IMG/VR virus record: IMGVR_UViG_3300031994_000001
Span: 247,799 to 311,798 of that record
Strand: one strand, 5' to 3'
From: a virus
Lineage: Duplodnaviria; Heunggongvirae; Uroviricota; Caudoviricetes
DNA length: 64,000 bases
A program made the translations under genes and the position numbers. The notes under the pieces are model-generated. The model searched no databases, was not told the origin of the DNA, and worked only from the letters and a program-made list of their open reading frames with translations. Below, in pieces: positions 85-24,556 of the stretch (position 1 is the stretch's first letter; every line of letters starts with the position of its first letter).

Positions 85-561
85 ATGACACCACAAGACA
101 AAGAACTGCTTACAGCGGACATATTCGCAAGATTGCCGTATGGCGTTAAATTGAATTGTGTAATTGATTTCAGAAACGACCTCGAAACCCTTGAAAACAA
201 GGATGTCGTTGAATTTGTGCCAAAGGACATTGCGTTAAACTATAACGGCGTTGTCGTTTATCTTGAGGACAATGACGAGTTTGACCAAGACACAATGAAT
301 GCCATACAAGATTATGTCGAATCGGGATTTGTCACCATTGACAACCTTGTACCATATCTGCGCCCATTGTCAAGCGCAACAAAAAAAGAAAAGAAAGAGT
401 ATGATAAATTAAGAATGTCATTTTACAAAAACGTCAAAGATGCCTCTCTTGTTCTTATTGATTGGCTGAACGCCCACCACTTCGACTACCGTGGTTTGAT
501 TGAACTCGGAATCGCACTTAATGCGCCCGAAGGTATGTATTCAAAAGAAAATAATGCCTAA
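85..561 (+). CDS. Array paralog 1 (LPYG-KPYLRP-HFDYRGL family, function unknown)
   Basis: DIFARLPYG, PYLRPLSS, DWLNAHHFDYRGLIE. Confidence 0.9.
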   Translation: MTPQDKELLTADIFARLPYGVKLNCVIDFRNDLETLENKDVVEFVPKDIALNYNGVVVYLEDNDEFDQDTMNAIQDYVESGFVTIDNLVPYLRPLSSATKKEKKEYDKLRMSFYKNVKDASLVLIDWLNAHHFDYRGLIELGIALNAPEGMYSKENNA

Positions 562-575
562 ACTTAAATAATGTT

Positions 576-992
576 ATGACGACTAAAGATAAAGACCTTT
601 TAACGAAAGACCTTTGCGGCAGGTTGCCGTATGGCATTAAAGTAGAAGTCTGTATAAAAGACAAAGATATAAAATCTGTGGATAATGTAAAATATGACAC
701 AGTTGGCACTTACATTAGGTTAATAGATGACGAGAAATTTTCAGTCAAACCTTATATCCGCCCTATGTCAAGTATGACCGATGACGAAAGGGACGATATG
801 AGAGAAGAGTTGGAATGGGTTGAATCATTCGGAGAGAGGTTCTATGACAAAACCACAGAGTTCTATGATTGGATGAACGCCCACCACTTCGACTACCGTG
901 GACTTATCGAAAAAGGGTTGGCACTTGAAGCACCCGAAGATATGTATTCAAAAGAAGATATGCCTAAACTTAAAGAATATTATGACGACTGA
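576..992 (+). CDS. Array paralog 2
   Basis: DLCGRLPYG, KPYIRPMSSMT, DWMNAHHFDYRGLIEKGLALEAP. Confidence 0.9.
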   Translation: MTTKDKDLLTKDLCGRLPYGIKVEVCIKDKDIKSVDNVKYDTVGTYIRLIDDEKFSVKPYIRPMSSMTDDERDDMREELEWVESFGERFYDKTTEFYDWMNAHHFDYRGLIEKGLALEAPEDMYSKEDMPKLKEYYDD

Positions 993-1416
993 AGACAGAG
1001 ACCTTTTGATGAAAGACCTTTGCGGTAGGTTGCCGTACAAGGTGAGATGCAAATGCGTGAACGGCTTGGGCGGCGGTAAAACCGAAAAAGGCGTACTGAA
1101 ATATGTCGGCAACTGCTACGGTGTCATCAGCAATTACTACGAAGACGTGCCACTCCATTCGGGATTCGTGAACAACGTGTTCTATCCGATTGAGAATGTC
1201 AAGCCGTATCTCCGACCAATGTGGAGTATGACAAATGAAGAACAAAAAGAATTTGTAGGATTTCATTGTGTAAACTTATGCCCTATTATAATGAATGAAA
1301 TGCTCACATTGGAAAATGAAACCAAGATGTTTGACTGGCTCAACACTCATCATTTTGACTATCGTGGATTGATTAAAAAAGGTCTTGCATTGGTAGCACC
1401 CGAAGGAATGTATTAG
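982..1416 (+). CDS. Array paralog 3 (start reassigned to ATG 982)
   Basis: MTTEDRDLLMKDLCGRLPY...KPYLRP...DWLNTHHFDYRGLI. Confidence 0.9.
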   Translation: MTTEDRDLLMKDLCGRLPYKVRCKCVNGLGGGKTEKGVLKYVGNCYGVISNYYEDVPLHSGFVNNVFYPIENVKPYLRPMWSMTNEEQKEFVGFHCVNLCPIIMNEMLTLENETKMFDWLNTHHFDYRGLIKKGLALVAPEGMY

Positions 1417-1417
1417 T

Positions 1418-1702
1418 ATGAAAGGACAATCGTTACAAAGACAGTTCAATTACTTGAAAGAGAGACTTGATAATAAGGAAGGAACACGTATAATTGTGGA
1501 TGAAAACCCTTATTATGGATTTTATGCCGAGTGTGATTGTCTCTATCATACAGAACGACACGGTGATTGGGAATTGGTTATTGACGAAAAGATAAAAAAC
1601 TGTGACTCAAACTGTAAGGAATGTAAAGAATGTGGTTTGTGGAATAAGAAAGGGTATTATTTTATTCCTTGTTCAAATATTTGGAGAATAAGATTGGATT
1701 GA
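1418..1702 (+). CDS. Cys-rich hypothetical cargo protein
   Basis: 94 aa ORF, AT-rich, CxxxCxxCxxC cluster; stop lies in TGGATTGATT repeat. Confidence 0.7.
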   Translation: MKGQSLQRQFNYLKERLDNKEGTRIIVDENPYYGFYAECDCLYHTERHGDWELVIDEKIKNCDSNCKECKECGLWNKKGYYFIPCSNIWRIRLD

Positions 1703-1755
1703 TTCCGATGGGTCTGGCGTTGGCTGCACCCGAAGGAATGTATCAAATACAATAG
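1696..1755 (+). pseudogene. Orphan 3' fragment of an array paralog (GLIPMGLALAAPEGMYQIQ*)
   Basis: Direct translation of 1696-1755 matches the family C-terminal block but has no N-terminal part. Confidence 0.85.
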
Positions 1756-1758
1756 ATT

Positions 1759-2247
1759 ATGACAACAGAAGAAAAACAATTATTGGTGAAGGACATCTGT
1801 GCAAGGATTCCGTTTGGATTAAAATGCACAACAAAAGCAAACAGTTGGCAGGGCGCATATCAGATAAGGGGTTGTTTGGACGGCAAAATATTCCTTGACT
1901 GCCACGAATACAACGAGGGCGATGACGAATGGCTCGTTCAGAATATCGTCCCATATCTCCGTCCCATACAAAGTATGACCGATGAGGAAATGGAAGACTA
2001 TGCAAGATACAAATTCTCGTCAGACGAAATTTGGGAAATCGTTGATTTCAAACGGACGGGCAAGGGATTCATAAATGTAAACTGCAAGAACAGAAATGAC
2101 GCAAGCGCACAATGGACGTTCCAAGTCAATCAAAAAAGCCCGCTTGAAAACCATAAAGGCATTGATTGGCTCAACGCACGCCACTTCGACTACCGTGGGC
2201 TTATAAAAATGGGATTGGCTAAAAAAGCCGCCGAAGGAATCTATTAA
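1759..2247 (+). CDS. Array paralog 4
   Basis: DICARIPFG, PYLRPIQSMT, DWLNARHFDYRGLI. Confidence 0.9.
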   Translation: MTTEEKQLLVKDICARIPFGLKCTTKANSWQGAYQIRGCLDGKIFLDCHEYNEGDDEWLVQNIVPYLRPIQSMTDEEMEDYARYKFSSDEIWEIVDFKRTGKGFINVNCKNRNDASAQWTFQVNQKSPLENHKGIDWLNARHFDYRGLIKMGLAKKAAEGIY

Positions 2248-2258
2248 ACCGAACAGAT

Positions 2259-2639
2259 ATGACTGAAGAAGAAAAACAACTGCTTTTCACAGACCTATGC
2301 GCAAGACTGCCATACGGTGTGATATTAGACAACGGGGTAAAACTGCGTACAATAGACGCATTGACAAAAGTGATAAGCGGTGACGGCTCGGACAGAAATA
2401 TTGAGTTCGTCAAACCTTACCTGCGCCCAATGTCAAGCGTTACGGATAAGGAACAGTATGAATACGACCACGCAATAGAAAACAATAAATTCACTGGGTT
2501 CCGAGGCAGGATTATTTGGGGTTTGGATTGGCTGAACGCACATCATCTTGACTACCGTGGTTTGATAGAAAAGGGGTTGGCACTTGAAGCACCCGAAGGA
2601 ATGTATAAAACGCCAAACATAAAAAATCAAGAATTATGA
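2259..2639 (+). CDS. Array paralog 5
   Basis: DLCARLPYG, KPYLRPMSS, DWLNAHHLDYRGLIEKGLALEAPEGMY. Confidence 0.9.
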   Translation: MTEEEKQLLFTDLCARLPYGVILDNGVKLRTIDALTKVISGDGSDRNIEFVKPYLRPMSSVTDKEQYEYDHAIENNKFTGFRGRIIWGLDWLNAHHLDYRGLIEKGLALEAPEGMYKTPNIKNQEL

Positions 2640-3127
2640 CAGAGGACGACAAAAAACTTCTATTAAAAGACCTATCAGCGAGATTGCCGTACAATGTGAA
2701 AGTCTTGTGCAGTTACTATGACGACACAGATGACACAGAACCGACAGTAAAAACATTCACTCTCACCGAAATAAACACGGAGAACGGCAATCACCCATAT
2801 TGGATAGGTGGCGAACAGTTGCAGGATAGCGGTTTTTCCAACGGCACTACGTCTTTCGCCGTGAATATAGACGATGACTTGCAATACATCAAGCCGTACC
2901 TGCGACCAATCACAAGCATAACGGGGAACGAGGAGCGGGAAATAAGAAATTTCTTCAGAAAGTGTATTGACGATTTACACGGAAAATCAAGCGAGGAACA
3001 ATTTTTTCTTGGTTTTTGCCAAGACGCGGAATCACTTGACTATCTCAATATGCACCATTTAGATTATCGCGGTCTGATTGGGATGGGGTTGGCAATCGAA
3101 GCCCCCGAAGGAATGTATGAAATCTAA
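2636..3127 (+). CDS. Array paralog 6
   Basis: DLSARLPY, KPYLRP, DYLNMHHLDYRGLI. Confidence 0.9.
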   Translation: MTEDDKKLLLKDLSARLPYNVKVLCSYYDDTDDTEPTVKTFTLTEINTENGNHPYWIGGEQLQDSGFSNGTTSFAVNIDDDLQYIKPYLRPITSITGNEEREIRNFFRKCIDDLHGKSSEEQFFLGFCQDAESLDYLNMHHLDYRGLIGMGLAIEAPEGMYEI

Positions 3128-3131
3128 TGTT

Positions 3132-3335
3132 ATGACAAAGAACGAATTACACAGACTGATGAAGTTGCTTTCCTACAAGGAACAGCACAAGGATATTTTG
3201 AAAAAACTGCACAACGATGCACAGATAATCTACGATGGGTTTGCCACAGAGGGATTGGTTACAATCTATGAAATGTGCAGTGACGAATGCAAAGACAAAT
3301 TGGTTTCCATTCTATTGGAGACAATTCAACAATAA
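3132..3335 (+). CDS. Hypothetical cargo protein
   Basis: ATG 3132 just after paralog 6 stop; fills gap. Confidence 0.6.
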   Translation: MTKNELHRLMKLLSYKEQHKDILKKLHNDAQIIYDGFATEGLVTIYEMCSDECKDKLVSILLETIQQ

Positions 3336-3346
3336 AACATACAGTT

Positions 3347-3802
3347 ATGACAGAACAAGAAAAAGAATTGCTTATTAAAAATTATTGCGCGAGACTTCCT
3401 TACGGGTTGAAACTGAATTTCTACGCACGCGCAACAAACGAAAACGTGTTATGCACGCTGTTGGGTATCGAACCCGAAAGCGACAAACCCATAATCGCCA
3501 AAACGGACAACGGGTCGTTCACATTCACGCAAGACCACGTTAAGCCATACCTGCGCCCGCTCTCAACTATGAAGCAGGAAGAGTGTGACGAATGGGGTGA
3601 AATAATATATCAACCGTTAATAAAACTCGAACAATATGATTATGAAGGGCTTGGTGTGGAACGCGCACCATATTGCTTCGCGGAAAGTAACGCCAACGCT
3701 TTTGAATGGATGCTCAAAAAACAATTTGATTACGACCATTTAATCGAAAAAGGTCTCGCGCTCGAAGCCCCAGAAGGAATGTATGAACATAAAAGCGAAT
3801 AG
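3347..3802 (+). CDS. Array paralog 7 (start ATG 3347)
   Basis: YCARLPYG, KPYLRP, FDYDHLIEKGLALEAPEGMY. Confidence 0.9.
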   Translation: MTEQEKELLIKNYCARLPYGLKLNFYARATNENVLCTLLGIEPESDKPIIAKTDNGSFTFTQDHVKPYLRPLSTMKQEECDEWGEIIYQPLIKLEQYDYEGLGVERAPYCFAESNANAFEWMLKKQFDYDHLIEKGLALEAPEGMYEHKSE

Positions 3803-3804
3803 TT

Positions 3805-4407
3805 ATGACGCAAGAAGATAAAAAACTGTTGTTGACTGACATCTGCGCACGATTGCCATACGGATTGATGTTCGCCCTTTGGAACGATTACCGCAAAGAG
3901 TTCTGTTGGGAAGTGCAAGTTAGCGGATTGGAATACGCGAACGCAAAACCTATTTTCGTATTCGACAAACCATCTTATCGAAAACACGGCATAGAAACAA
4001 TCAAGCCATACCTGCGCCGCATATCGTCTATGATTGACGATGAAAAATCGGAGTACGCTAACTTTTGGAGTTATGACGAATATGACGAAGCCATACTCAC
4101 ACCCGAAGACGCTGTACGCTGCGGCGATTGGCTTGACGCTCATTTCTTCGACTATCGCGGACTGCTCGAAAAAGGATTGGCACTCGAAGCACCGAGCGGA
4201 ATGTATGCTGCCTTGAACAAAGAAACGCATACCCCGATGACCGTTGAGGAAGCAAAGGCGTTCATTCGTCAGCACAATGTGGTGCATCCGAGGTGCAGGC
4301 AATGCAAGGAAAGTTTCTGTGACGGCTGTGCCGAGATTGTTGACAGAGAACTCGTGAACGATGTCATAAGCGGCAAGATAAACGAAATCAACTGTTTTGA
4401 ATTTTAA
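3805..4407 (+). CDS. Array paralog 8 with C-terminal CxxC-x4-CxxC extension
   Basis: Family blocks plus HPRCRQCKESFCDGC tail. Confidence 0.9.
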   Translation: MTQEDKKLLLTDICARLPYGLMFALWNDYRKEFCWEVQVSGLEYANAKPIFVFDKPSYRKHGIETIKPYLRRISSMIDDEKSEYANFWSYDEYDEAILTPEDAVRCGDWLDAHFFDYRGLLEKGLALEAPSGMYAALNKETHTPMTVEEAKAFIRQHNVVHPRCRQCKESFCDGCAEIVDRELVNDVISGKINEINCFEF

Positions 4408-4411
4408 TGGT

Positions 4412-4873
4412 ATGGATAAAGAAAAAGAAAAGATAAAATACGCAGACATCTGTGCGAGGATTCCATACGGGGTGTATGTGTTTGTTGAAACAATCCCGAA
4501 AGACGACTGCGTGTGCAGGCTTTGGAAAACCGACTGCACGAATGCTGATGTGAGGAACAAATGTAAAACATACAATGTATCGCTTGACCATATCAAGCCC
4601 ATATTGAGACCGTTTAAAGATATGTCAACCGATGAGGTTGACAATCTCAACACCATACTGCAAAAATGCAAAATGACAGAACTTTCCGCTTCTAATGGTT
4701 CTGACGTGGCGCAGATTATGCAGAATCTGAACATAAGTGCAATGGCTGAAATATTGGACTACCTAAACTCAATTCACATTGACTACCGTGGTCTTATAAC
4801 AATGGGCATCGCCGTCAAGACCGAAAAATCAATAATAGAAAAATACATTAAAAAGGACACCAATGGCAACTAA
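4412..4873 (+). CDS. Array paralog 9 (subtype B)
   Basis: DICARIPYG, KPILRP, DYLNSIHIDYRGLI. Confidence 0.88.
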   Translation: MDKEKEKIKYADICARIPYGVYVFVETIPKDDCVCRLWKTDCTNADVRNKCKTYNVSLDHIKPILRPFKDMSTDEVDNLNTILQKCKMTELSASNGSDVAQIMQNLNISAMAEILDYLNSIHIDYRGLITMGIAVKTEKSIIEKYIKKDTNGN

Positions 4874-5111
4874 AAAAGAATTTACCGTCACCTACACCTA
4901 TATCAAAACGGATGACGGTACAAAAATGTTGAAAGCACCGCAATTCGGCGGCAACTACACGGAGCAGGAACGCGAGGAACTGCTTGACTACGTGTTGGAC
5001 ACGGAGATTTCCCTTACAAATCATTTTGAATGTCCCGCCGCTTACAGTCTGAAAAACGCTTGGGAATCATACAAGATGGAAAAAGAGTTGAAAAAGAAAT
5101 TCAAAAAATAA
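4863..5111 (+). CDS. Hypothetical cargo protein
   Basis: 82 aa ORF, translationally coupled. Confidence 0.65.
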   Translation: MATKKEFTVTYTYIKTDDGTKMLKAPQFGGNYTEQEREELLDYVLDTEISLTNHFECPAAYSLKNAWESYKMEKELKKKFKK

Positions 5112-5115
5112 CACT

Positions 5116-5328
5116 ATGGACAGTTACAATATAAAGGACAACAAGTTTGTTAGGAATATAAGCCCATTTGAGAGTGTGTATTTGAGAAATGATGTCATAG
5201 CATTCCTCAACCGTTGGTTGGAATACTATGAGGACAAACTTAAACGCGCACAAACAGACAAAGAAAAGTTGGAATATGAGGGGTCGGTCAACGCGATAAG
5301 AATATTGAAAGATGAACTTAAATCATAA
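5116..5328 (+). CDS. Hypothetical cargo protein
   Basis: 70 aa ORF in operon-like packing. Confidence 0.65.
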   Translation: MDSYNIKDNKFVRNISPFESVYLRNDVIAFLNRWLEYYEDKLKRAQTDKEKLEYEGSVNAIRILKDELKS

Positions 5329-5332
5329 AGTT

Positions 5333-5779
5333 ATGGCAGAAGAATATATACAATTCAAAAGAGGCTGCGTTTACAAGTCGCTGAAGGACTTTAGCAGAAT
5401 GAACCCCGATTGTTTCTGTGCAGGCGATTGGCTGTTCTCAAAGAACTGTATTTACCGTTGTGAGGAAGACGGCACGCTCAATGCCTGCGGCGGCACATAC
5501 AAAGACGAGAAAATGCCAATCGAATACGAGAAAGACTTTGTTCTTGTCGGGCATTACGATTACAAACTATGCGATTACGAACTGCGCAAGAAAGCAATGC
5601 AGGAGGCGTATGAAAAACGCTACTTCGACTTCGACAAATTCTATTCCGCATACTGCGAGATACTTGAACAGTTGGACGAAGAAAACAGCAAAATAGACGA
5701 AAAAACCATCAGATATATTGACGGGCAGGTCGGTCAGTATTTTGACGAATACGGCAGCGTCAGTGAAAGTCTTATATAA
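5333..5779 (+). CDS. Hypothetical cargo protein
   Basis: ATG 5333, phage-like codon usage. Confidence 0.7.
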   Translation: MAEEYIQFKRGCVYKSLKDFSRMNPDCFCAGDWLFSKNCIYRCEEDGTLNACGGTYKDEKMPIEYEKDFVLVGHYDYKLCDYELRKKAMQEAYEKRYFDFDKFYSAYCEILEQLDEENSKIDEKTIRYIDGQVGQYFDEYGSVSESLI

Positions 5780-5789
5780 ATTGTGTACT

Positions 5790-6191
5790 ATGCGTTCAGA
5801 CTACAATGAACTTGTTTGGAAAGACCTCTGTGGCAGATTGCCATACGGCGTAAGATGTTACGTTCCGACTCACGATGAGGTTATGCGGCTGACGGGTCAG
5901 CGGCTAAACTATCTGTGCTTTCACAAGGACAGTTTCGGATTGGATTACAGTCACGAGATTGAGACTGTGTTAGACCCGTGGAACAGCGACATTATCGTAA
6001 GACCATACCTGCGCCCGCTTTCAAGTATGACAAAGAAAGAAAAAAAAGAGTATGCCAACCTTGAAGAATACAACTACGTGCAAGCCGTTGATTGGATGTA
6101 CGAACACCATTTCGACTGCCGTGGTCTTATCGAAAAAGGATTGGCTTACGAAGCACCGAAAAATATGTACGCAAAAAGAAAAAGAATATGA
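5790..6191 (+). CDS. Array paralog 10 (start ATG 5790)
   Basis: DLCGRLPYG, RPYLRPLSSMT, HHFDCRGLIEKGLA. Confidence 0.9.
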   Translation: MRSDYNELVWKDLCGRLPYGVRCYVPTHDEVMRLTGQRLNYLCFHKDSFGLDYSHEIETVLDPWNSDIIVRPYLRPLSSMTKKEKKEYANLEEYNYVQAVDWMYEHHFDCRGLIEKGLAYEAPKNMYAKRKRI

Positions 6192-6577
6192 CAAACGAAG
6201 ATAAGTCGTTATTGTTTGCAGACCTTTGCGGCAGGTTGCCATACGAAGTTCAATGTGAATACACATCAATCCAAAAAGGGCTGGAACTGTGTAATGTAAT
6301 TGGAACATTGACTTGTGTTGAAAAAATTGTAAATGCCTATAAAGTTGAAGTGGATAGGCATTTGGTTGGTTTTTCCGACTTCAAACCATATCTCCGACCG
6401 TTATCCGATATGTCGGAGTTGGAATCTGTATATTACAACACAGCATTTGTATATAAGAAATTCCACGAAAAAACAGATTGGCTTAATGCCCATCATTTCG
6501 ACTACCGTGGATTGATTGAAAAAGGGTTGGCTCTTGAAGCCCCAAAAGATATGTACGAAAAAATAAAAAAGTTATGA
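6188..6577 (+). CDS. Array paralog 11 (start ATG 6188)
   Basis: DLCGRLPY, KPYLRP, DWLNAHHFDYRGLIEKGLALEAP. Confidence 0.9.
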   Translation: MTNEDKSLLFADLCGRLPYEVQCEYTSIQKGLELCNVIGTLTCVEKIVNAYKVEVDRHLVGFSDFKPYLRPLSDMSELESVYYNTAFVYKKFHEKTDWLNAHHFDYRGLIEKGLALEAPKDMYEKIKKL

Positions 6578-7014
6578 CAAACGAAGATATGCAACTTCTT
6601 ATGACCGACATCGCGCCGAGACTGCAACACAAGTTGAAATTTAAGGCGGAATCGTTCCACGACAATTACAAATTTGAGAACGATATTCTTGAATTGTGGG
6701 GCATAAACTATATATCGGGCGGTTGGATTATGTTGGATTTCAGAGGCTGTATGAATGTGACTGCCCCAATTGAGCGTTACAAGCCGTACCTGCGCCCTAT
6801 GTCAAGTATGACAAAGGAAGAATGCGAGGAATGTATGCCGTTGTTTGACGTGATGGATGACAACTACATACCCCACGAAGAATGGTCTTACCGTGCGTTT
6901 GATTGGCTCAACGCGCATCATTTCGACTACCGTGGACTGATTGAAAAGGGGTTGGCTATTGAAGCCCACGAAGGCATTTATGAAGTGAAAGGAGGTTCGG
7001 TATGCCAGTCATAG
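6574..7014 (+). CDS. Array paralog 12
   Basis: Degenerate first block (DIAPRL), KPYLRPMSSMT, DWLNAHHFDYRGLI. Confidence 0.9.
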   Translation: MTNEDMQLLMTDIAPRLQHKLKFKAESFHDNYKFENDILELWGINYISGGWIMLDFRGCMNVTAPIERYKPYLRPMSSMTKEECEECMPLFDVMDDNYIPHEEWSYRAFDWLNAHHFDYRGLIEKGLAIEAHEGIYEVKGGSVCQS

Positions 7015-7829
7015 CACCCGTGGTTTACCCTTATCTGTACGGCAATCTGTTTGACGGATGGGCGAGAATGGGCGAACTGAAAGCAAAGGAAGCCAACGAA
7101 CAATGGCATAAATCACTGAAATCAAAATTCATTGAAAGGTTCAACGCGCTCGGATTCAACATTATAGCAATGGATTCTTTGTCTTACGGGGCAAGGTGCT
7201 TTGTTGCAAGCAGGAAATACCCGAATCTGTATTCCTCATTCGAAGTATCGTTGGATAATGTGACGAACTCCGTCACTTGGAAATGCTATCTGAAGGAAAG
7301 GCATTGGAGTACATTTGATGTTAGCCTTACTAACTTGCTGTCTATGCTCGGTATGATGTCCAAAGTGACAAAGAAAGTCGGTCTGTTCGGTCTGTTCAGA
7401 AAAGAAGTTTCGCCCGAACCGCTTATGTCATTGGAACAATTCTACGAAACAGCGGAAATGTCATTCAAGGAAATCGGTGTCACGCCAACACCTTATAAAT
7501 TCATATACGAGGACAACAATGACGATGAAATACACGAGGAATTGGACAGAGACACAAATTGGTTCAGCTACCATTATGAAATGCTGCATTTCACTTTGGG
7601 CAAAGGCGATATTATTCCGTTGAACAACAAGGAACTTGATATGAAAACATTGGGTGAGATAGTCAAATACAACACGGGTCGCGACCTGCGTTATGACGAA
7701 TGTCCTTGCGGAATCCAAACGACTGCTATGGTGAAACACCATCTGAAGATAGATATGATGCAGTACAGACTTCTGCAAATGTTCAAGAACAACACAGTCG
7801 GCGAATCCATAAAATTACAAGCAAAATGA
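7002..7829 (+). CDS. Hypothetical cargo protein
   Basis: 275 aa ORF, no motif recognised. Confidence 0.75.
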   Translation: MPVIAPVVYPYLYGNLFDGWARMGELKAKEANEQWHKSLKSKFIERFNALGFNIIAMDSLSYGARCFVASRKYPNLYSSFEVSLDNVTNSVTWKCYLKERHWSTFDVSLTNLLSMLGMMSKVTKKVGLFGLFRKEVSPEPLMSLEQFYETAEMSFKEIGVTPTPYKFIYEDNNDDEIHEELDRDTNWFSYHYEMLHFTLGKGDIIPLNNKELDMKTLGEIVKYNTGRDLRYDECPCGIQTTAMVKHHLKIDMMQYRLLQMFKNNTVGESIKLQAK

Positions 7830-8314
7830 CAATAGAAGAAAAGAAACTTTTGGCAAGAGACCTTATCGGCAGAATCCCATACGGCGTGATGATTCGGCAC
7901 AATAATAGCGGGGTCGTGCGTGTGCTTCACGACATATCCGTTTACCCGAAATATGATGGCAACGATATATGCGACTATCTGTGCAACATTATGTTCTTTG
8001 GTAGGAGCATATCTGTCGAATATTTCAAGCCTATCTTGCGACCCGTATCGGATATGACAAAAGAGGAAATTGAGCATATCTGCAAAATATGCTATTTCGG
8101 CAATCCCGCAGACGACTATGACAAACACGACCATCGCGGTGTTGAGATTGTGTCATACATATACAAGAGTATGCAAGAACCGCACACGGATGTTACCTTT
8201 GACTTCGATGAGGTCGCCGAGATAACCGACTACCTCAACTCACGTCACATTGACTATCGCGGGCTTATCGAAAAGGGTCTTGCAATAAAATCCGAATCAA
8301 GCGAATATTTCTAA
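7826..8314 (+). CDS. Array paralog 13 (subtype B; start ATG 7826)
   Basis: DLIGRIPYG, KPILRP, DYLNSRHIDYRGLI. Confidence 0.9.
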   Translation: MTIEEKKLLARDLIGRIPYGVMIRHNNSGVVRVLHDISVYPKYDGNDICDYLCNIMFFGRSISVEYFKPILRPVSDMTKEEIEHICKICYFGNPADDYDKHDHRGVEIVSYIYKSMQEPHTDVTFDFDEVAEITDYLNSRHIDYRGLIEKGLAIKSESSEYF

Positions 8315-8330
8315 ATAAATTAAACAAATT

Positions 8331-8723: not shown

Positions 8724-8724
8724 T

Positions 8725-8970
8725 ATGGCAAACACAAAGCACACCTATTATGTCGAATACGTGTACGAGTACGAAATCTTCCTGCCCGAAGACAACGAAT
8801 GGTTCAAGGACGAAATGTGCGATGCCAAAATCGTATGCGACCAACTGAAACGGGATATACCCAAGTATCTTAAAGAGAAAGTCCTTGAAGATTTGAAGTT
8901 CGACAACATAAGGAATTTCAAATTCAAGATAACGGATATGTACTTAACAAGTGACGATGCCCGTCTATGA
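8725..8970 (+). CDS. Hypothetical cargo protein
   Basis: ATG 8725 one nt after previous stop. Confidence 0.65.
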   Translation: MANTKHTYYVEYVYEYEIFLPEDNEWFKDEMCDAKIVCDQLKRDIPKYLKEKVLEDLKFDNIRNFKFKITDMYLTSDDARL

Positions 8971-8991
8971 TTTCGGATTTTTTATTATATT
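8971..8991 (+). promoter_or_regulatory. Putative phage-specific promoter motif TTNCG(N)A..TTTTTATTATATT
   Basis: Intergenic; same motif at 11156, 17896, 25625, 27282, 45783 and on minus strand 52559-52578. Confidence 0.65.
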
Positions 8992-9012
8992 CTTATATAA
9001 GTTATATATGCA

Positions 9013-9405
9013 ATGGACGAAAAAGATTTGACAATAAAAGATTTGTGCGCACGCATCCCATACGGCGTTATGGTTCACGTTCACATTGACAAAGATTGCA
9101 TTGACGCGCACAACCACATTTACAGCGATTATGACAGACCGCTTGACACCGAGTGTTTCAATTGGTATGTCGGGTTGGACGGCGTTACGCTGAAGCCGTA
9201 CTTGCGTCCTATGGAAGATATGGACAAAAACGAAAAAAGCGACTACCAATACATAACCGAGCAGTGGATGTACGATGCCGAACATACCATAAGCGAAAGC
9301 ATAGATTGGCTGAATGAGCGACATTTCGACCATCGTGGATTGATTGGGAAGGGTCTTGCGATTGAAGCACCGAAAGAAATGTATAAAAACAAATTAAAAT
9401 TATGA
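9013..9405 (+). CDS. Array paralog 14
   Basis: DLCARIPYG, KPYLRPMEDM, DWLNERHFDHRGLI. Confidence 0.9.
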   Translation: MDEKDLTIKDLCARIPYGVMVHVHIDKDCIDAHNHIYSDYDRPLDTECFNWYVGLDGVTLKPYLRPMEDMDKNEKSDYQYITEQWMYDAEHTISESIDWLNERHFDHRGLIGKGLAIEAPKEMYKNKLKL

Positions 9406-9614
9406 TACAAAGCAAGCAAAACGGTCATAGCATTGTTATTGACGGCAATATGGTAACTTACGATGGTGTCAAATACGAACTCCCAAAAAGAATATGGAAC
9501 AGAAACGGACGCTCGGTTGTCCAATCCAATGATAAGATATACATAGACGAGTACGTTTTCAAAGACGGTAAATTTCGTTGGTCTCTTATCGGTTTATTAA
9601 ACAGACTGTTCTGA
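9402..9614 (+). CDS. Hypothetical cargo protein
   Basis: 70 aa ORF, ATGA overlap. Confidence 0.65.
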   Translation: MIQSKQNGHSIVIDGNMVTYDGVKYELPKRIWNRNGRSVVQSNDKIYIDEYVFKDGKFRWSLIGLLNRLF

Positions 9615-9664
9615 TTGAAACTGTATAATTCAGAAAAATATGATATTCATTAAATACATCAACT

Positions 9665-10096
9665 ATGGAGAAAAATAAAGAAAACATTTTGTTTGCCGAC
9701 TTGGTTGCAAGACTGCCATACGGTGTAAAAATTGAAGTTGAGGCTTGGAACGAGGAGACCGAAAGTTCCGAAATGGTAGCCATACCAATCTATTCAGTAA
9801 ATACCGACAGATATTTCTATGCGTGTACTGACAGTGAAGAGATACAAATTCACATAGACGAAGTTCAACCGTACCTCCGAAAGATGTCAAGTATGACAGA
9901 AGAGGAAAAGGTAGAATATGACAAGTTGTGTTATAATTGCCAAGAGCAAGATAGCGTTGATTACAACATAACTCAACTTGATAGGACACAACTTATATAT
10001 GTTATTGATTGGCTCAACGCCCACCACTTCGACCATCGTGGTCTGATTGAAATTGGATTGGCACTTGAAGCCCCCGAAGATATGTATCAATTCTGA
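9665..10096 (+). CDS. Array paralog 15
   Basis: DLVARLPYG, PYLRKMSSMT, DWLNAHHFDHRGLI. Confidence 0.9.
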   Translation: MEKNKENILFADLVARLPYGVKIEVEAWNEETESSEMVAIPIYSVNTDRYFYACTDSEEIQIHIDEVQPYLRKMSSMTEEEKVEYDKLCYNCQEQDSVDYNITQLDRTQLIYVIDWLNAHHFDHRGLIEIGLALEAPEDMYQF

Positions 10097-10101
10097 TTGC
10101 T

Positions 10102-10530
10102 ATGACAAAGGAAGAAACTGAACTTCTCGTAAAGGATTTGAGCGCGAGAATAGCATACGGGGTGATTCTGAAAACGCCAAGCGGAAACGGCTATCTGTCC
10201 GACATACACCACACAATTTCTGATTGGAGAATCGGCGTGGAAGTAACTACAACGAAACGGTGCGTTTACAGCATAGATGAAGTCAAACCTTACCTGCGGA
10301 GTTTCGACTCTATCGAAATGGAAGAATGCGACAGAATCGAAGAAATGGTGTTTCCTATGGAAACTTGGGATGGTGAAATGCCCGCAGTCGTCAAAGTGAA
10401 TGACGCTCCGAAGTTGCTTGACTGCTATGACAGAATAATGGTGGACTACCGAGACTTGATTGAAAAGGGATTGGCTATAGAAGCCCCAGAAGGAATGTAT
10501 GACCTTATGATAAAAAACAACCAACTATGA
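10102..10530 (+). CDS. Array paralog 16
   Basis: DLSARIAYG, KPYLR, DYRDLIEKGLAIEAPEGMY. Confidence 0.88.
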   Translation: MTKEETELLVKDLSARIAYGVILKTPSGNGYLSDIHHTISDWRIGVEVTTTKRCVYSIDEVKPYLRSFDSIEMEECDRIEEMVFPMETWDGEMPAVVKVNDAPKLLDCYDRIMVDYRDLIEKGLAIEAPEGMYDLMIKNNQL

Positions 10531-11105
10531 TATACACTATTTTACTTGTTTTGTTCGTTATAGGTGTTTCGGCTTACATATACACAACGTTCAGAACAAT
10601 GAAAAAGAACGAGGAAAAGAAAGCCGAGCCGCCAAAGGAAAAATCCGAGGAAACGGATAATCCAAATAAGATGACCGCAAACCAAAAACTTGTGTATGCG
10701 GATTTGTGCGGCAGACTGCCATTCGGTGTGAAATGCGCCGTGTATTTCAAGAATCCGAGAAAGGACGGGTTTAACGGCTATATAACCGAACTCAACACGT
10801 ACCTGCTTGAAGAACTTGAGGATTTGGAATCAACCGAGGTTAAGGAGATAAAGCCGATTTTACGCAGGCTTGTTGATATGACCGAAGAGGAGCAGGCGAA
10901 CTTGAGAAAAGTAGCCCACGAAAAAGACGAAAAACTGTACCTTGAAGCGATAAACAGAAGCAAGATGGGGGACGGTTCTATGCGCGGAAAAGTCATAACC
11001 CATTTCGCCGCAGATTGGTGCAACGCGCACCATTTCGACTACCGAGGTTTGATTGACAAGGGGCTTGCCAATATGGTTGACGAAAAGTACAATCCTTACA
11101 ATTAA
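10527..11105 (+). CDS. Array paralog 17 with N-terminal transmembrane anchor
   Basis: Hydrophobic MIYTILLVLFVIGVSAYIY, charged linker, then family blocks. Confidence 0.9.
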   Translation: MIYTILLVLFVIGVSAYIYTTFRTMKKNEEKKAEPPKEKSEETDNPNKMTANQKLVYADLCGRLPFGVKCAVYFKNPRKDGFNGYITELNTYLLEELEDLESTEVKEIKPILRRLVDMTEEEQANLRKVAHEKDEKLYLEAINRSKMGDGSMRGKVITHFAADWCNAHHFDYRGLIDKGLANMVDEKYNPYN

Positions 11106-11107
11106 AG

Positions 11108-11137
11108 AAACGCGGTTGCAATGCAGCCGCGTTTTAT
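11108..11137 (+). terminator. Rho-independent terminator
   Basis: AAACGCGGTTGCA-A-TGCAGCCGCGTTT hairpin followed by T-rich tract. Confidence 0.7.
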
Positions 11138-11155
11138 TATTGAAAATTTTGTTCG

Positions 11156-11177
11156 TTTCGGATTTTTTTATTATATT
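11156..11177 (+). promoter_or_regulatory. Putative phage promoter motif (TTTCGGATTTTTTTATTATATT)
   Basis: Recurrent intergenic motif, directly after terminator. Confidence 0.65.
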
Positions 11178-11300
11178 ACATCAAAAGGAATTGTATGAGA
11201 GATTACAACAGCATATTCAACCGAGTACCGAGCGACCATTGCATAGTCGGCGGTATGTGCGTTCCGATAGGGCTGCTCACAAGTTCAAAAACGAAAAGCA

Positions 11301-11711
11301 ATGACAAAAGAAGAAAGAGATTATCTGTTCGCTGACGTTAGCGCGAGACTGCCTTACTCACCGATTTTTGATTACGGTGACGATGACGGCAAAGTGTTTA
11401 AACTCGGAGTGATAAATTACGAGTTTCTTGCCCATATGTATTTTCAAAATGTCAACAACAAAGACGCTGATATGCTTCGCCCGTATTTGCGTCCTATGTC
11501 AAGTATGACAGAAAAAGAAATGAGCGAATTAAGGCAATGGGGATGTTTGTGTATGACCCCCGATGGCTGTGTAGAAGACATTGGCGTATATGGTGCTATT
11601 CATAGTATTCCCGTTATAGATTGGCTCAACGCCCACCATTTCGACTATCGCGGTTTGATTGAAAAAGGGTTGGCACTTGAAGCCCTCGAAGGAATGTACG
11701 ACTTCAAATAA
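11301..11711 (+). CDS. Array paralog 18
   Basis: DVSARLPY, RPYLRPMSSMT, DWLNAHHFDYRGLIEKGLALEA. Confidence 0.9.
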   Translation: MTKEERDYLFADVSARLPYSPIFDYGDDDGKVFKLGVINYEFLAHMYFQNVNNKDADMLRPYLRPMSSMTEKEMSELRQWGCLCMTPDGCVEDIGVYGAIHSIPVIDWLNAHHFDYRGLIEKGLALEALEGMYDFK

Positions 11712-11717
11712 AGCATT

Positions 11718-12167
11718 ATGGAAAAGAACGAAATCGGAAGTTTAATTGACGACTTGGCGTTCAACGACATCTGTGCGAGAATACCATACGGATTGAAAAT
11801 TGAACGCATATACAAGATGAACGGCAAACGCCATCAAGAGACAATAGACATTGACATTGATAATGTCAGCGTTTTCTTCGAGTACATAGAAAAGGATTGG
11901 TACGAAAGCGTAAAACCCGTCCTGCGACCCATAGCAGATATGACACAAGCGGAGGTCAACAAAGTGTTTGACATTTTGAACATTGACGAGGAACACGGAG
12001 ATTGGCTCAAAGTGAACGATATCGGAATCCTGCGATTATTCACCGAGGCGGGCAAGGACTTGTACGAAATTGCAGCCGCTATGGACTATCTGAACAAAAT
12101 TCACATTGACTACCGCAACCTCATTGAAAAAGGATTGGCGGTCAAGGCAAGCAAAGGAACATATTAA
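11718..12167 (+). CDS. Array paralog 19 (subtype B)
   Basis: DICARIPYG, KPVLRP, DYLNKIHIDYRNLI. Confidence 0.9.
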   Translation: MEKNEIGSLIDDLAFNDICARIPYGLKIERIYKMNGKRHQETIDIDIDNVSVFFEYIEKDWYESVKPVLRPIADMTQAEVNKVFDILNIDEEHGDWLKVNDIGILRLFTEAGKDLYEIAAAMDYLNKIHIDYRNLIEKGLAVKASKGTY

Positions 12168-12179
12168 AACCCAAATATT

Positions 12180-12353
12180 ATGAGAAACGCTATCATTTAT
12201 TTTTGCTCAAACATTTTGAGAATTTTGATTTACTCCGTGATTGCATTGGTTTTCATTTCAATCGGAAATCTGTTCGGCGGAGTTAAGGACAACATTTCCG
12301 TATCGCTGCTCATCGGTTTCACTTGGGCTATTCTCAACGACATAGCGAACTGA
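12180..12353 (+). CDS. Small membrane protein (57 aa, below ORF-track cutoff)
   Basis: MRNAIIYFCSNILRILIYSVIALVFISIG...; two hydrophobic stretches; fills gap exactly. Confidence 0.55.
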   Translation: MRNAIIYFCSNILRILIYSVIALVFISIGNLFGGVKDNISVSLLIGFTWAILNDIAN

Positions 12354-12354
12354 T

Positions 12355-12837
12355 ATGACACGCAAGAAAGAATTACTCGCGGAAGAGCGGCTGCTATTTG
12401 AAGACCTATGCGGACGAATCCCATACGGCGTGATGCTATTTTACGAAAAATGGAACTATGATTTTGACAATTCTATGGGAATAGTCGAAAAACTGTTCGG
12501 CATTGACGGGAAATGGATATACACCGTTGACAGTTCGGGCAAGGTTGACAAGCATTCAATCCAAGAGCCTCTGCGGATAACAAGGTTCAAGCCGTACCTG
12601 CGTAAAATATCGGATATGACCGCAGAGGAATACGAGGACTTCTACAAGGCAGTCGCCACCGACAACAACAATCACCACGGTTGCGTGGTTGACGGAAAGC
12701 CAAAGATATTCACCCTCGGAATCAGAACGATGGCTTGGCTGAATGCCCACCACTTCGACTACCGAGGTCTTATCGAAAGAAAATTGGCATTGGATGTCAA
12801 GGAAACATCAAACCCATATAAAGAAAAGGAACAATGA
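12355..12837 (+). CDS. Array paralog 20
   Basis: DLCGRIPYG, KPYLRK, WLNAHHFDYRGLI. Confidence 0.9.
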   Translation: MTRKKELLAEERLLFEDLCGRIPYGVMLFYEKWNYDFDNSMGIVEKLFGIDGKWIYTVDSSGKVDKHSIQEPLRITRFKPYLRKISDMTAEEYEDFYKAVATDNNNHHGCVVDGKPKIFTLGIRTMAWLNAHHFDYRGLIERKLALDVKETSNPYKEKEQ

Positions 12838-13343
12838 GACAACGTGCTGTATTCGCTGGGTCATTCGACCCGTTCACAATGGCTCACTTGGAGATATGCC
12901 GAAAAGCGAGCGACTTTTTCAAAGTGACTGTGCTTATTTGTGTCAACCCGAACAAAAGCAACAGTATGTTCACGGCAGAGGAACGCAAGGAAATGATTGA
13001 CCTTCTGTTCAAAGACACAGACCTTGTTGATGTTGACATCTGCTACGGTCTGCTCGCAGACTACTGCAAGTCACACAACATAAAGTATGTTGTCAGAGGT
13101 CTGCGCTATACCAACGCGATAGAGGAAATCGAACTTGCCAACATATACCACGAGGACGGCGTTGAAACCGTTATGTTCCCGCTGTGTGACGGCAAGTATG
13201 CCAATGTATCTTCAACCCGCATTAGGGAATATATCAAATACGGTTGGAATTGGAAACGGTTTGTCCACCACAAACTTCACGCTATGATAGAGGAAAGTCT
13301 GCAACGCCGCAGCCTTTGTGAACGAGAACTGATAAACAAATAA
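12834..13343 (+). CDS. coaD: Phosphopantetheine adenylyltransferase-like nucleotidyltransferase
   Basis: AVFAGSFDPFTMAH, NPNK, ER..MI, VVRGLR, VETV, VSST motifs of PPAT. Confidence 0.85.
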   Translation: MRQRAVFAGSFDPFTMAHLEICRKASDFFKVTVLICVNPNKSNSMFTAEERKEMIDLLFKDTDLVDVDICYGLLADYCKSHNIKYVVRGLRYTNAIEEIELANIYHEDGVETVMFPLCDGKYANVSSTRIREYIKYGWNWKRFVHHKLHAMIEESLQRRSLCERELINK

Positions 13344-13353
13344 CAACTGCGAT

Positions 13354-13560
13354 ATGGCTGACTACATTGTAACATACCAAAGACGCGAGCAATACGACTG
13401 CCAAGGAAACTGCGGGGTAAAAACCGTGGCAAAGGCATTTAACGGCAGCACAACGCTCGAAGAGGTTGCCAAGTGGGTAAAAGACACGGCAGGTGTGTTC
13501 TGCAACCAACCGAATGTAATTGACAACCCGAAAATAATCGGAATAGGAGACGATAATTAA
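13354..13560 (+). CDS. Hypothetical protein
   Basis: 68 aa ORF in operon packing. Confidence 0.6.
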   Translation: MADYIVTYQRREQYDCQGNCGVKTVAKAFNGSTTLEEVAKWVKDTAGVFCNQPNVIDNPKIIGIGDDN

Positions 13561-13563
13561 ACT

Positions 13564-14100
13564 ATGACAAAAGAACAGAAAAAACGGCTTATCAACGACT
13601 TGTGTTGCAGACTTCCATTCCAACCAATCGCATATTTCTATTTGGAGTTCAATATGGATGGTGTCAAGGAAGACGGATATTGCAGGATTCGTTCAGTCAA
13701 CATAGAACGGGAAACCGTTGACACTGACTGCGGCGAGTTCTCGTTGGATGACATCAAACTCTGCCTGCGCAGGCAAAGCCAAATGACAGACGAGGAACGT
13801 GAAGAATATGAGAATGCCATTGAATACCGAAGCGATTACGACAAATACGATTGGCTTGCGGAACACCACTTCGACTTCCGTATGCTGATTGAGGATAATA
13901 TCGCAATCGAAGCGGATGACGTTATAAGAGACGAACTCGGACTAACAACAAAGCCTGCCGAAGACCCGTACAAAACACCCGTGCATATCGAAATGTTAGA
14001 TAAAGACGGTATGGTGGTATCGGAAAACGACTACCTCGGTATAATGCTGCCGTCAGACAATCCGAATGAAATCAGCCTATCATTAAAACCAATAGAATAA
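13564..14100 (+). CDS. Array paralog 21 with C-terminal extension
   Basis: DLCCRLPF, KLCLRRQSQMT, DWLAEHHFDFRMLI. Confidence 0.85.
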   Translation: MTKEQKKRLINDLCCRLPFQPIAYFYLEFNMDGVKEDGYCRIRSVNIERETVDTDCGEFSLDDIKLCLRRQSQMTDEEREEYENAIEYRSDYDKYDWLAEHHFDFRMLIEDNIAIEADDVIRDELGLTTKPAEDPYKTPVHIEMLDKDGMVVSENDYLGIMLPSDNPNEISLSLKPIE

Positions 14101-14486
14101 TGGACAACAGAGAAAAACAACTGCTCACCGCCGAAACGTGCGCAAGAATGATGTACGGCGTAAAGGCGAAGTCGAACCAATCAGAGGTTGTGTTCACCGT
14201 CCTGCGAGGCGGCAACTACGATGATGAGGAACAGTATTTCATTCCCGACAATTTGGGGTTTGCATTCAAGATTGACGAGTTCAAACTTCTGCTGCGCCCT
14301 ATGTCATCTATGTCTGACGATGACGATATGCACCGTTGCGCGTTCTTGGACGATATTGAGGGCGGTGTCGCGGAGGCTATTCCAAACTACATCGAATGGC
14401 TCAACCAAAACCACTACGACTACCGTGGTTGGATTGAAAAGGGGTTGGCACTCGAAGCACCCGAAGGAACTTACAACTTAAAATAA
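14100..14486 (+). CDS. Array paralog 22
   Basis: TCARMMYG, LLLRPMSSM, WLNQNHYDYRGWIEKGLALEAPEG. Confidence 0.88.
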   Translation: MDNREKQLLTAETCARMMYGVKAKSNQSEVVFTVLRGGNYDDEEQYFIPDNLGFAFKIDEFKLLLRPMSSMSDDDDMHRCAFLDDIEGGVAEAIPNYIEWLNQNHYDYRGWIEKGLALEAPEGTYNLK

Positions 14487-15135: not shown

Positions 15136-15166
15136 AAAAAGAGGGCTGAATTTCAGCCCTCTTTTT
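15136..15166. terminator. Bidirectional terminator between convergent genes
   Basis: AAAAAGAGGGCTGAA-T-TTCAGCCCTCTTTTT perfect inverted repeat. Confidence 0.85.
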
Positions 15167-24554: not shown

Positions 24555-24556
24555 TA

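Follow-up and report, generated by a model that had tools for sequence, protein, structure and literature searches.

Here, we describe a family of small paralogous proteins encoded in tandem in a 64,000-nucleotide (nt) stretch of viral DNA (hereafter, the window), which comprises bases 247,799-311,798 of the 413,021-bp IMG/VR virus record IMGVR_UViG_3300031994_000001, a genome rated complete by CheckV and belonging to a rumen jumbo phage. An earlier note on this DNA had recognised 22 tandem paralogs at window positions 85-14486, together with a distal copy at 25666, and had proposed that constant blocks in these genes act as recombination hotspots through which intervening variable segments are shuffled or imported. 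The gene count is borne out by open reading frame (ORF) calls, a hidden Markov model (HMM) built from the copies and alignment: the window array holds 22 intact plus-strand ORFs of the family, and a 23rd lies at 25666-26139. In the whole genome, the HMM detects 45 family domains, which occupy 20.1 kb (4.9% of the genome) and fall into array A (genome 85.6-99.6 kb, minus strand; 15 copies, including a fused pair that shares one ORF), array B (genome 242.7-262.3 kb; 29 copies) and the distal copy. Array B extends past the window edge, and its last 22 copies are those inside the window. The 45 proteins are 125-207 amino acids (aa) long (median 144), and 44 of them are acidic, with a median isoelectric point of 4.9 and a net charge of about −10. 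Genes in the window array mostly overlap or are separated by short gaps (−17 to +16 nt), and most junctions lack a promoter or stem-loop. Unrelated cargo genes do sit between the units, as the earlier note had stated; we counted 14 non-family ORFs, among which only the product of 12,834-13,343 has a family match (cytidylyltransferase-like, PF01467).

Constant core and variable inserts

Each domain is arranged in the order C1-V1-C2-V2-C3. The consensus of C1 is M-T-x-E-E-K-x-L-L-x-x-D-L-C-A-R-L-P-Y-G, that of C2 is K-P-Y-L-R-P-M-S-S-M-T-x-x-E, and that of C3 is D-W-L-N-A-H-H-F-D-Y-R-G-L-I-E-K-G-L-A-L-E-A-P-E-G-M-Y. In an alignment of 23 sequences, M1, R64, D115 and A125 are invariant, and R16, P61, L63, E73, R117, L119, I120 and G123 are at least 90% conserved. 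The inserts vary from 20 to 85 aa (V1) and from 13 to 58 aa (V2). In an all-vs-all blastp of the 45 copies, none of the 990 V1 pairs and one of the 990 V2 pairs had detectable similarity at E≤1e-3, and clustering at 50% identity placed the 45 genomic copies in 45 V1 clusters and 45 V2 clusters. The alignment and the blastp of the inserts thus confirm the layout of three constant blocks separated by two unalignable inserts that had been read by eye.

In an AlphaFold2 model of copy 18 (predicted local distance difference test [pLDDT] 83; predicted template modelling score [pTM] 0.76), the C blocks are confidently predicted, with per-block pLDDT values of 91-97, and the V regions are less so (59-78). 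In the model, C1 contains a helix, V1 is made of beta strands and short helices, C2 consists of a strand and a helix, V2 is a loop, and C3 comprises a long helix and short strands, suggesting that each protein is one alpha/beta domain in which V1 forms a beta-rich sub-module. Because clusters of viral hypothetical proteins in the ESM Atlas that carry other inserts superpose on this model (template modelling score 0.75-0.82 over 117-125 of 136 residues), a single topology seems to be kept throughout the domain, including the inserts. The model of the two-domain fused copy (L076:6452-7249; pLDDT 68.5, pTM 0.44) is uninformative on inter-domain packing.

Reassortment of modules and positions of crossovers

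For comparisons between phages, we pooled 535 domains (45 from this genome, 221 from loci and the rest database matches), of which 507 are non-identical, and split them by HMM state into C1, V1, C2, V2 and C3. Altogether, 75 loci were taken from IMG/VR contigs, many of them 100-410 kb long. Among 75 pairs of non-identical domains with V1 at least 85% identical, similarity in V2 was detectable in 12; of the 82 pairs sharing V2, similarity in V1 was likewise detectable in 12. With a threshold of 50%, V2 is also shared by 13 of the 270 pairs that share V1, where independence predicts ∼0.7. A little linkage between V1 and V2 remains, but about 95% of it is gone, and the two modules assort almost independently across lineages. 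Most multi-member clusters pair with more than one partner cluster (76 of 84 for V1; 86 of 94 for V2), and 33 domains resemble one partner in their first half and another in their second (at least 80% identity each), neither partner being related to them over the remaining half. Together with the resolved mosaics described below, these data uphold the proposal that V1 and V2 are shuffled or imported as modules. The 507 domains fall into 358 V1 clusters and 331 V2 clusters; the module pool is far from sampled out.

Sharing within a contig is rare (V1 in one and V2 in two of 1,579 pairs) and no commoner than sharing between contigs, arguing that the arrays are collections of distinct alleles rather than recent local duplications. 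The exchange that we observe runs between phage lineages and not between copies of this array. The pooled ratio of nonsynonymous to synonymous substitution rates (dN/dS) of shared modules is 0.18 for V1 (31 pairs) and 0.16 for V2 (29 pairs). Because these values are about 0.17, the V modules are stable functional alleles under purifying selection, which are reshuffled and not hypermutated.

To locate the crossovers, we used the ends of shared patches in an all-vs-all blastn of the loci and the genome (at least 80% identity). The 173 distinct patch ends inside family domains gather in C1 (32), C2 (41) and C3 (54), with a further 23 in the tail; only seven lie in V1, which makes up 28% of the nucleotides, and 14 of the 16 in V2 lie within the five states adjoining C2. 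Identity profiles along the domain have the same shape. Pairs that share only V1 are 0.75-0.88 identical over C1, V1 and the first C2 codons, drop to the family baseline (∼0.7) within C2 and fall to 0.27-0.38 in V2; pairs that share only V2 climb from the baseline within C2, reach 0.89-0.91 in V2 and decay to the baseline within C3. The view of the constant blocks as recombination hotspots is therefore supported by patch ends that gather in C1, C2 and C3 and rarely lie in the interior of V1 or V2, and by individual mosaics that resolve to C2 and C3.

Several such mosaics involve copies in the window. One homologue joins C1-V1-C2 of copy 18 to V2-C3 of copy 12 (P0188/L087). Two others join V1 of copy 3 to V2 of copy 18 (P0155, which recurs in two independent assemblies) or to V2 of copy 15 (P0153), and P0191 combines a new V1 with V2 of copy 18; in all, V2 of copy 18 pairs with at least three other V1 modules (P0155, P0191, L001, L002 and L003). 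The parents of P0188, P0155 and P0153 share 18, 12 and 9 nt at the junction, respectively, which is below assembler k-mers. Because the first and second halves of the L087 gene are 98.8% and 95.6% identical to this genome, L087 comes from a related strain and is not a mis-join of this genome. On a 361-kb contig, the gene L036_7693 consists of C1 and V1 of copy 3 (90-96% nt identity), a foreign V2 and C3, and then the Cys-rich tail of copy 8 (86-100% nt identity), with junctions in C2 and at the end of C3; the copy 8 tail thus occurs on a different family gene in L036. In L088/L089, the homologue of copy 4 is immediately preceded by a gene that combines copy 3 V1 with copy 18 V2 and whose C3 ends in ..EGMYQIQ. 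In this genome, copy 3 V1 is followed at the same place by a different V2 and a complete C3, after which come the cargo ORF 1418-1702, an orphan C3 remnant that likewise ends in ..EGMYQIQ, and copy 4. The difference is a replacement, of which the left crossover lies in C2 and the right one in C3, and the orphan C3 half at 1696-1756 is a recombination footprint. L002 carries a third combination, copy 18 V2 with the cargo ORF 1418-1702, and the patch 1331-1752 is common to L002 and L041 (90-92% nt identity). In L041, patches from array A and array B lie within ∼3.3 kb of each other. Copy number varies among relatives, with 27, 16, 5, 4 and 4 copies in five related records, the last of which is a fragment (32% complete).

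The earlier note had also read C3 as conserved at the DNA level. This description fits the five examples that it named, which have 83% mean column identity as DNA, but not the family as a whole, in which C3 nucleotide identity is 0.626 compared with 0.599 in synonymous-shuffled controls. At identical residues, the same codon is used at a rate of 0.435 in C1, 0.381 in C2 and 0.486 in C3, where codon usage predicts 0.34, 0.30 and 0.38, and at chance level in V1 and V2; the same-codon excess in the C blocks is small. The longest exact run in C3 has a median of 9 nt, runs of at least 20 nt occur in 3.5% of pairs (0.26% in controls), and exact matches between copies extend to 28 nt at most. Synonymous identity in C1/C2/C3 is 0.45/0.40/0.48 within the genome and 0.475/0.425/0.44 between contigs, and C-block synonymous sites are close to saturated. 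Because synonymous identity within the genome is overall not above that between contigs, and adjacent copies in the array are no more alike at C-block synonymous sites than distant ones, concerted evolution inside the array is absent, and the C blocks show little sign of being conserved as DNA in their own right. Neither inverted nor direct DNA repeats are evident other than those that the protein motifs entail. Accordingly, the proposal that the C blocks are maintained at the DNA level to serve as substrates for recombination is not supported.

Probable driver of the exchange and possible function

Neither a reverse transcriptase (no matches to PF00078, RVT_1, in the whole 413-kb record) nor RecT was found in the genome, which does carry a RecA/UvsX-like gene (68.6 bits) and an SbcC-like gene. 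Because of the lack of a reverse transcriptase and the presence of the latter two genes, general homologous recombination is the simplest driver. Of the earlier note's statement to this effect, the absence of reverse transcriptase from the array now extends genome-wide, and the driver itself is consistent with the genes present. A diversity-generating retroelement was rejected based on the lack of a reverse transcriptase in 413 kb, the lack of a template repeat/variable repeat pair (no V1 or V2 in the genome resembles another) and the dN/dS of ∼0.17 in shared modules. Switching of the pilin/vls type was rejected because all 45 domains lie in intact ORFs, with one orphan C3 fragment and no silent or partial cassettes, and there is neither gene conversion within the genome nor a neighbour effect. 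A local gene accordion was rejected because module sharing within contigs is as rare as that between contigs.

Two sequence motifs bear on when the family is expressed. The motif TATAAATA occurs at 111 genome sites (37 expected) and, in the window, lies just upstream of minus-strand virion-type genes, e.g., that for the head maturation protease; the 20-kb array B contains no site. A second, distinct motif, TTTTTATTATAWW (in full TTCGGATTTTTT(T)ATTATATT), occurs at 25 genome sites, where it precedes the heads of arrays A and B, the distal copy and array segments. It also occurs in front of non-structural operons, at a distance of 20-60 nt from their start codons; sites in the window are 8972-8993, 11157-11179, 17897, 25633 and 45785. 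The interior of the window array contains only two of these promoter-like sites and one hairpin (Table 1). The two motifs probably represent different temporal promoter classes, and we assume from the motif context that the family is expressed non-late. A scan for sigma-70-type promoters was uninformative (40 sites compared with 34.7 expected).

Searches for a known function returned little. Pfam gave sub-threshold noise only for eight copies, none of 23 members matched NCBIfam or PADLOC, and the best match in a profile search of PDB sequences had an E value of 0.23. Among folds, Foldseek found nothing at E≤0.001 in the PDB and only uncharacterised phage proteins in BFVD (best E 0.014); in VIA-align comparisons with 48,161 chains, Z did not exceed 2.8, and three MazG-like chains were at the noise level (Z 2.0-2.5). 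A language-model search of named Atlas clusters gave no usable match.

Altogether, we consider the following explanation likely as a whole. The genome carries a 45-copy family of small acidic phage proteins, presumably non-virion, with a constant core and hypervariable V1 and V2, the modules being drawn from a very large pool common to rumen jumbo phages and reassorting nearly freely. Exchange tracts begin and end inside C1, C2 and C3, and the same junctions carry whole genes, C-terminal tails and unrelated cargo ORFs into and out of the arrays, so that copy number and content vary widely between relatives. The driver would be ordinary phage recombination (UvsX-like and SbcCD-like genes) acting during co-infection on the short imperfect homology of the C blocks (9-28 nt exact, ∼70%), with selection keeping new combinations and a dedicated diversity generator being unneeded. 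The proteins would be made early or mid infection and act together as a repertoire, in which the constant core does one conserved job, such as docking or catalysis, and V1 and V2 determine the variable host or competitor target of each copy, targets in host defence or takeover being the likeliest. We infer this recognition function (binder or anti-defence) from the small size, strong acidity and non-virion context of the proteins, from the presence of 45 non-redundant co-resident copies, which would suit variable host or competitor factors, from the free reassortment of V modules that are under purifying selection, and from neighbouring genes of RNA repair and nucleotide metabolism. Support for the antibody-like repertoire of binders against host defence that the earlier note had proposed is circumstantial and consists of the small acidic proteins, the presumed non-late promoter context and the accessory genes nearby. 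Several points weigh against this explanation. The pooled set is a convenience sample made up of top HMM matches and of loci found with one C3 peptide pattern, and some pairs in it are not independent, near-identical contigs having been only partly removed. The invariant polar residues (R16, R64, E73, D115, R117 and the HH pair) fit an enzyme site equally with a docking surface. Moreover, the C-block homology is short and ∼70% identical, and simple RecA-type recombination there should be inefficient; a helper mechanism for the exchange is, therefore, conceivable.

A dedicated diversification machine acting on the array is in our view very unlikely. Site-specific recombination at the C blocks (e.g., by the serine recombinase encoded at 23568-24521), cassette switching of the pilin or variant surface glycoprotein (VSG) type, and re-integrating mini-circles are the candidates, and such a machine would account for exchange that is very frequent relative to point divergence and confined to blocks of ∼40-80 nt with homology poor for RecA-type exchange. 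It would also fit the resolvase gene 1.1 kb upstream of the distal copy and the L087 junction of copy 18 V1 with copy 12 V2, which is ordered as in a circle or duplication junction and not as in a deletion. However, nothing ties the resolvase to the arrays, crossovers are spread across the blocks instead of falling at one site, no DNA repeats stand out beyond the effect of the protein motifs, and the genome holds 45 intact ORFs and one orphan fragment in place of silent or partial cassettes, and no reverse transcriptase. Another possibility is ordinary ancient paralogy, in which the copies diverged in place by mutation, with fast V regions and no module exchange. The uniqueness of every V1 and V2 within the genome, the nearly saturated synonymous sites of the C blocks and the lack of homogenisation within the genome or of an adjacency effect are what this would predict; nevertheless, it is already contradicted by the linkage, mosaic and profile results and hardly credible, given that the halves of many proteins match different partners at 80-100% identity, that V1 and V2 sharing are almost uncoupled, that patch ends cluster at the C blocks, and that a dN/dS of ∼0.17 in shared V modules is not fast drift. 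We find it equally hard to credit that the mosaics arose during metagenome assembly, through jumps from one copy or strain to another at the C blocks. The sequences used for comparison were all assembled from short metagenomic reads, and some of the chimeric genes lie on low-coverage contigs of 0.7-1.9 kb; yet no two copies share 31 nt or more, the parents of the mosaics share 9-18 nt, below assembler k-mers, P0155 was found in two separate assemblies, and the same pattern is present on contigs of 100-390 kb. In addition, the shared patches are 86-96% and not 100% identical, arguing that they come from diverged lineages.

With respect to function, the main rival to a recognition repertoire is a catalytic core with a specificity tuned by V1 and V2. 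According to this alternative, the proteins would be enzymes or regulators: the invariant Arg, Asp, Glu and His side chains of the constant blocks would build a catalytic or nucleic-acid-binding site, with V1/V2 adjusting the choice of substrate. The invariant or near-invariant residues listed above are mostly charged or polar, and for a fold without a solved relative nothing argues against catalysis. On the other hand, comparisons with Pfam, NCBIfam, PADLOC, and PDB sequences and folds revealed no catalytic family, and 45 co-resident, non-redundant, strongly acidic copies better suit a recognition repertoire than one chemistry; we therefore regard an enzyme or regulator as unlikely. More speculatively, and less probable still, the proteins might form a pan-phage combinatorial recognition system, in which the core docks on one conserved effector or machine (a phage-encoded protease or nuclease being a candidate, e.g., the FtsH-like AAA+/M41 protein encoded 4.4 kb downstream of the array), V1 and V2 together specify many different targets in host defence systems or competitor phages, and the C blocks have been shaped, or are assisted by a dedicated activity, as exchange points, giving a community-wide library of hundreds of V1/V2 specificities. 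If true, this would be a viral counterpart of a modular immune-receptor repertoire.

Distribution, comparable systems and genomic surroundings

A profile search of 1.84 billion representatives of 50%-identity clusters gave 8,905 matches at E≤1e-3 and 3,957 at E≤1e-10, and none of the 8,905 carries a name. Some homologues (P0183 and P0215), and also one Atlas cluster, carry DUF6794 (PF20594) as a C-terminal fusion, and the DUF6794 profile has no match in the eight window copies scanned. PHROG 10841, a profile of unknown function, matches all eight copies tested (E 7e-7 to 4e-3), mostly over partial stretches, and membership in it is weak but consistent. That PHROG comes without annotation, reported array or reported shuffling, and the rumen jumbo-phage branch described here is far larger (8,905 clusters). 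The deposited phages of INPHARED yielded nothing for the array by megablast or for copy 18 by tblastn, and the sole match, a weak one, was obtained with tblastn of copy 5 to a hypothetical protein of Cellulophaga phage phi13:1 (31.7% identity, E 0.02). We found no published description of the family in the literature on jumbo phage, rumen, multigene families or DUF6794.

In a collection of prokaryote genomes, copy 11 had no match, and copy 18 matched nine loci, all in rumen records deposited as metagenome-assembled genomes (MAGs; cattle RUG bins, yak rumen and red deer). One of the scaffolds that carry the family, ONIZ01000001.1 (L081/L083; 410,106 bp), was deposited as 'uncultured Firmicutes bacterium isolate RUG343'; the IMG/VR virus record IMGVR_UViG_2799112330_000002 (L058/L065), also 410,106 bp, carries the family as well. 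Evidently, ONIZ01000001.1 is the genome of a jumbo phage that was deposited as a bacterial MAG, and the other rumen MAG matches probably reflect the same mis-binning.

In the gp38 tail-fibre adhesins of T-even-type phages, hypervariable segments lie between conserved glycine-rich motifs that form the structural core, chimeras arise by recombination in or near the motifs, and a large pool of segments is common to phages (Trojet et al. 2011, PMC3157838; Tetart et al. 1998, cited there). With hypervariable segments between conserved core motifs and recombination in or near these motifs, the family resembles gp38, which is its closest analogue in architecture and evolution. However, gp38 is a single-copy virion receptor-binding protein with four modules, whereas the family has up to 45 copies in a non-virion context and two modules; we detected no sequence or fold relation between the two and no Pfam or PHROG adhesin match, and array B lacks TATAAATA. 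At the level of the array, the closest analogue is the promoter-early stem-loop (PeSL) cassettes in the hyperplastic regions of T4-type phages, in which short repeats between small accessory ORFs mediate shuffling, insertion and deletion, possibly through mini-circles, in large lytic phages (Arbiol et al. 2010, PMC2839356). In both cases, short repeated sequences guide the modular shuffling of small accessory genes, but PeSL repeats are non-coding regulatory cassettes between which whole ORFs are swapped, whereas the blocks of the family are coding and the swapped modules are smaller than a gene. Shuffling of PeSL-type regulatory cassettes was rejected here, as junctions are mostly overlaps or gaps of ≤16 nt and breakpoints lie in coding blocks.

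Cassette antigenic variation, as in Neisseria pilE/pilS and Borrelia vlsE, relies on one expression site, silent partial cassettes and switching within a genome; antigenic-variation systems and the C-terminal cassettes of polymorphic toxins have a constant-variable-constant layout in which conserved blocks guide segmental exchange. The family shares this layout and this role of the conserved blocks but differs in that all copies are complete genes, presumably co-expressed, and that the exchange seen is between genomes. The multigene families MGF360/505 of African swine fever virus and the gene accordions of poxviruses are tandem arrays of host-interaction genes that expand by local duplication and vary in copy number between strains. 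The family likewise forms tandem arrays whose copy number varies between relatives; in contrast to the former, module sharing within its contigs is as rare as that between contigs, and its mosaicism lies below the gene level.

Motif-guided shuffling of segments is a known kind of process, and the phage protein family to which it applies here is undescribed and unusually large: it comprises no fewer than 8,900 sequence clusters, its copies number up to 45 and then take up 5% of a genome, and it lacks both a Pfam model and a solved fold. Jumbo phages hold many unexplained multigene families; in this one the evolution is readable, with two modules near linkage equilibrium and crossovers confined to three short coding blocks. 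It thus offers a natural system, already well sampled, in which to study how co-infecting phages exchange parts of genes through short, diverged coding homology, and a ready-made library of small scaffolded variable proteins for target screening. If the targets are host defence systems, the arrays would be among the largest counter-defence repertoires known; if not, the family would still be a major uncharacterised component of rumen phage genomes.

The coordinates of the copies and of associated features are listed in Table 1.

Table 1. Family copies, cargo genes and putative regulatory features (window positions unless stated otherwise)
Feature	Position	Strand	Remarks
Family copy 1	85..561	+	158 aa; ORF, HMM, alignment
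Family copy 2	576..992	+	138 aa; L028 homologue has both modules, V1 97% aa identity
Family copy 3	982..1416	+	144 aa; V1 joined to other V2s elsewhere (P0153, P0155, L036_7693)
Cargo ORF	1418..1702	+	94 aa, Cys-rich, no family match; between copy 3 C3 and orphan C3 remnant
Orphan 3' half of C3	1696..1756	+	reads ..GLALAAPEGMYQIQ*; sole C-block match outside the 45 copies
Family copy 4	1759..2247	+	162 aa
Family copy 5	2259..2639	+	126 aa
Family copy 6	2636..3127	+	163 aa
Family copy 7	3347..3802	+	151 aa
Family copy 8	3805..4407	+	200 aa; Cys-rich C-terminal tail, weak IBR_1 match
Family copy 9	4412..4873	+	153 aa
Family copy 10	5790..6191	+	133 aa
Family copy 11	6188..6577	+	129 aa
Family copy 12	6574..7014	+	146 aa; V2/C3 joined to copy 18 V1 in contig L087
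Family copy 13	7826..8314	+	162 aa
Promoter-like motif TTCGGATTTTTTATTATATT	8972..8993	+	upstream of copy 14; one of 25 genome sites
Family copy 14	9013..9405	+	130 aa
Family copy 15	9665..10096	+	143 aa; V2 with other V1s in L045, P0153, P0193
Family copy 16	10102..10530	+	142 aa
Family copy 17	10527..11105	+	192 aa; family domain begins at 10671
Putative hairpin, 8-bp stem, with T run	~11108-11141		precedes promoter-like motif at 11157; read by eye
Promoter-like motif, same as at 8972	11157..11179	+	upstream of copy 18
Family copy 18	11301..11711	+	136 aa; modelled with AlphaFold2
Family copy 19	11718..12167	+	149 aa
Family copy 20	12355..12837	+	160 aa
Cargo ORF, cytidylyltransferase-like	12834..13343	+	PF01467, E 5e-17
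Family copy 21	13564..14100	+	178 aa, C-terminal extension
Family copy 22	14100..14486	+	128 aa
Bidirectional terminator-like hairpin, perfect 14-bp stem	15136..15166		closes + array block, before convergent minus-strand genes
Distal family copy	25666..26139	+	157 aa; directly downstream of resolvase and DNA methylase genes
Tpt1/KptA and DUF285 genes	L076 8960-9475, 9584-10222 = genome 92960-93475, 93584-94222	−, −	

Copy 17 alone has an N-terminal hydrophobic, transmembrane-like segment and a Lys/Glu-rich linker before the family domain (10527-10670), and two of the cargo ORFs in the array (12180-12353 and 14492-14713) are small and hydrophobic. Within array A lie genes for a DUF285/BspA-like repeat protein and for a Tpt1/KptA RNA 2'-phosphotransferase (E 4e-42), and contig L041 matches the Tpt1 region with 98.6% identity over 1 kb. 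Upstream of array B, at genome 234786-237955 (L077 1786-4955), we noticed by eye an ORF (555 aa) resembling nucleotidyltransferases of the CCA-adding/poly(A) polymerase family and, in the same stretch, an ORF (288 aa) resembling Thg1-like tRNA-His guanylyltransferase. The genes directly upstream of the distal copy encode a serine recombinase (Resolvase and HTH_7 domains; 23568-24521) and an N6/N4 DNA methylase (stretch 23568-25615, plus strand). Elsewhere in the window, a gene for an FtsH-like protein (AAA+ ATPase and Peptidase_M41; 18917-21142, plus strand) lies 4.4 kb downstream of the array, and a RimK-like ATP-grasp gene (PHROG 'ribosomal protein S6 glutaminyl transferase') lies at 36788-38194 on the minus strand. 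A family B DNA polymerase is split over adjacent plus-strand ORFs at 39078-40400 and 40414-41895 in an order that looks permuted: the former matches a later segment (profile 150-237), and the latter has the exonuclease domain and an earlier polymerase segment (profile 16-138).

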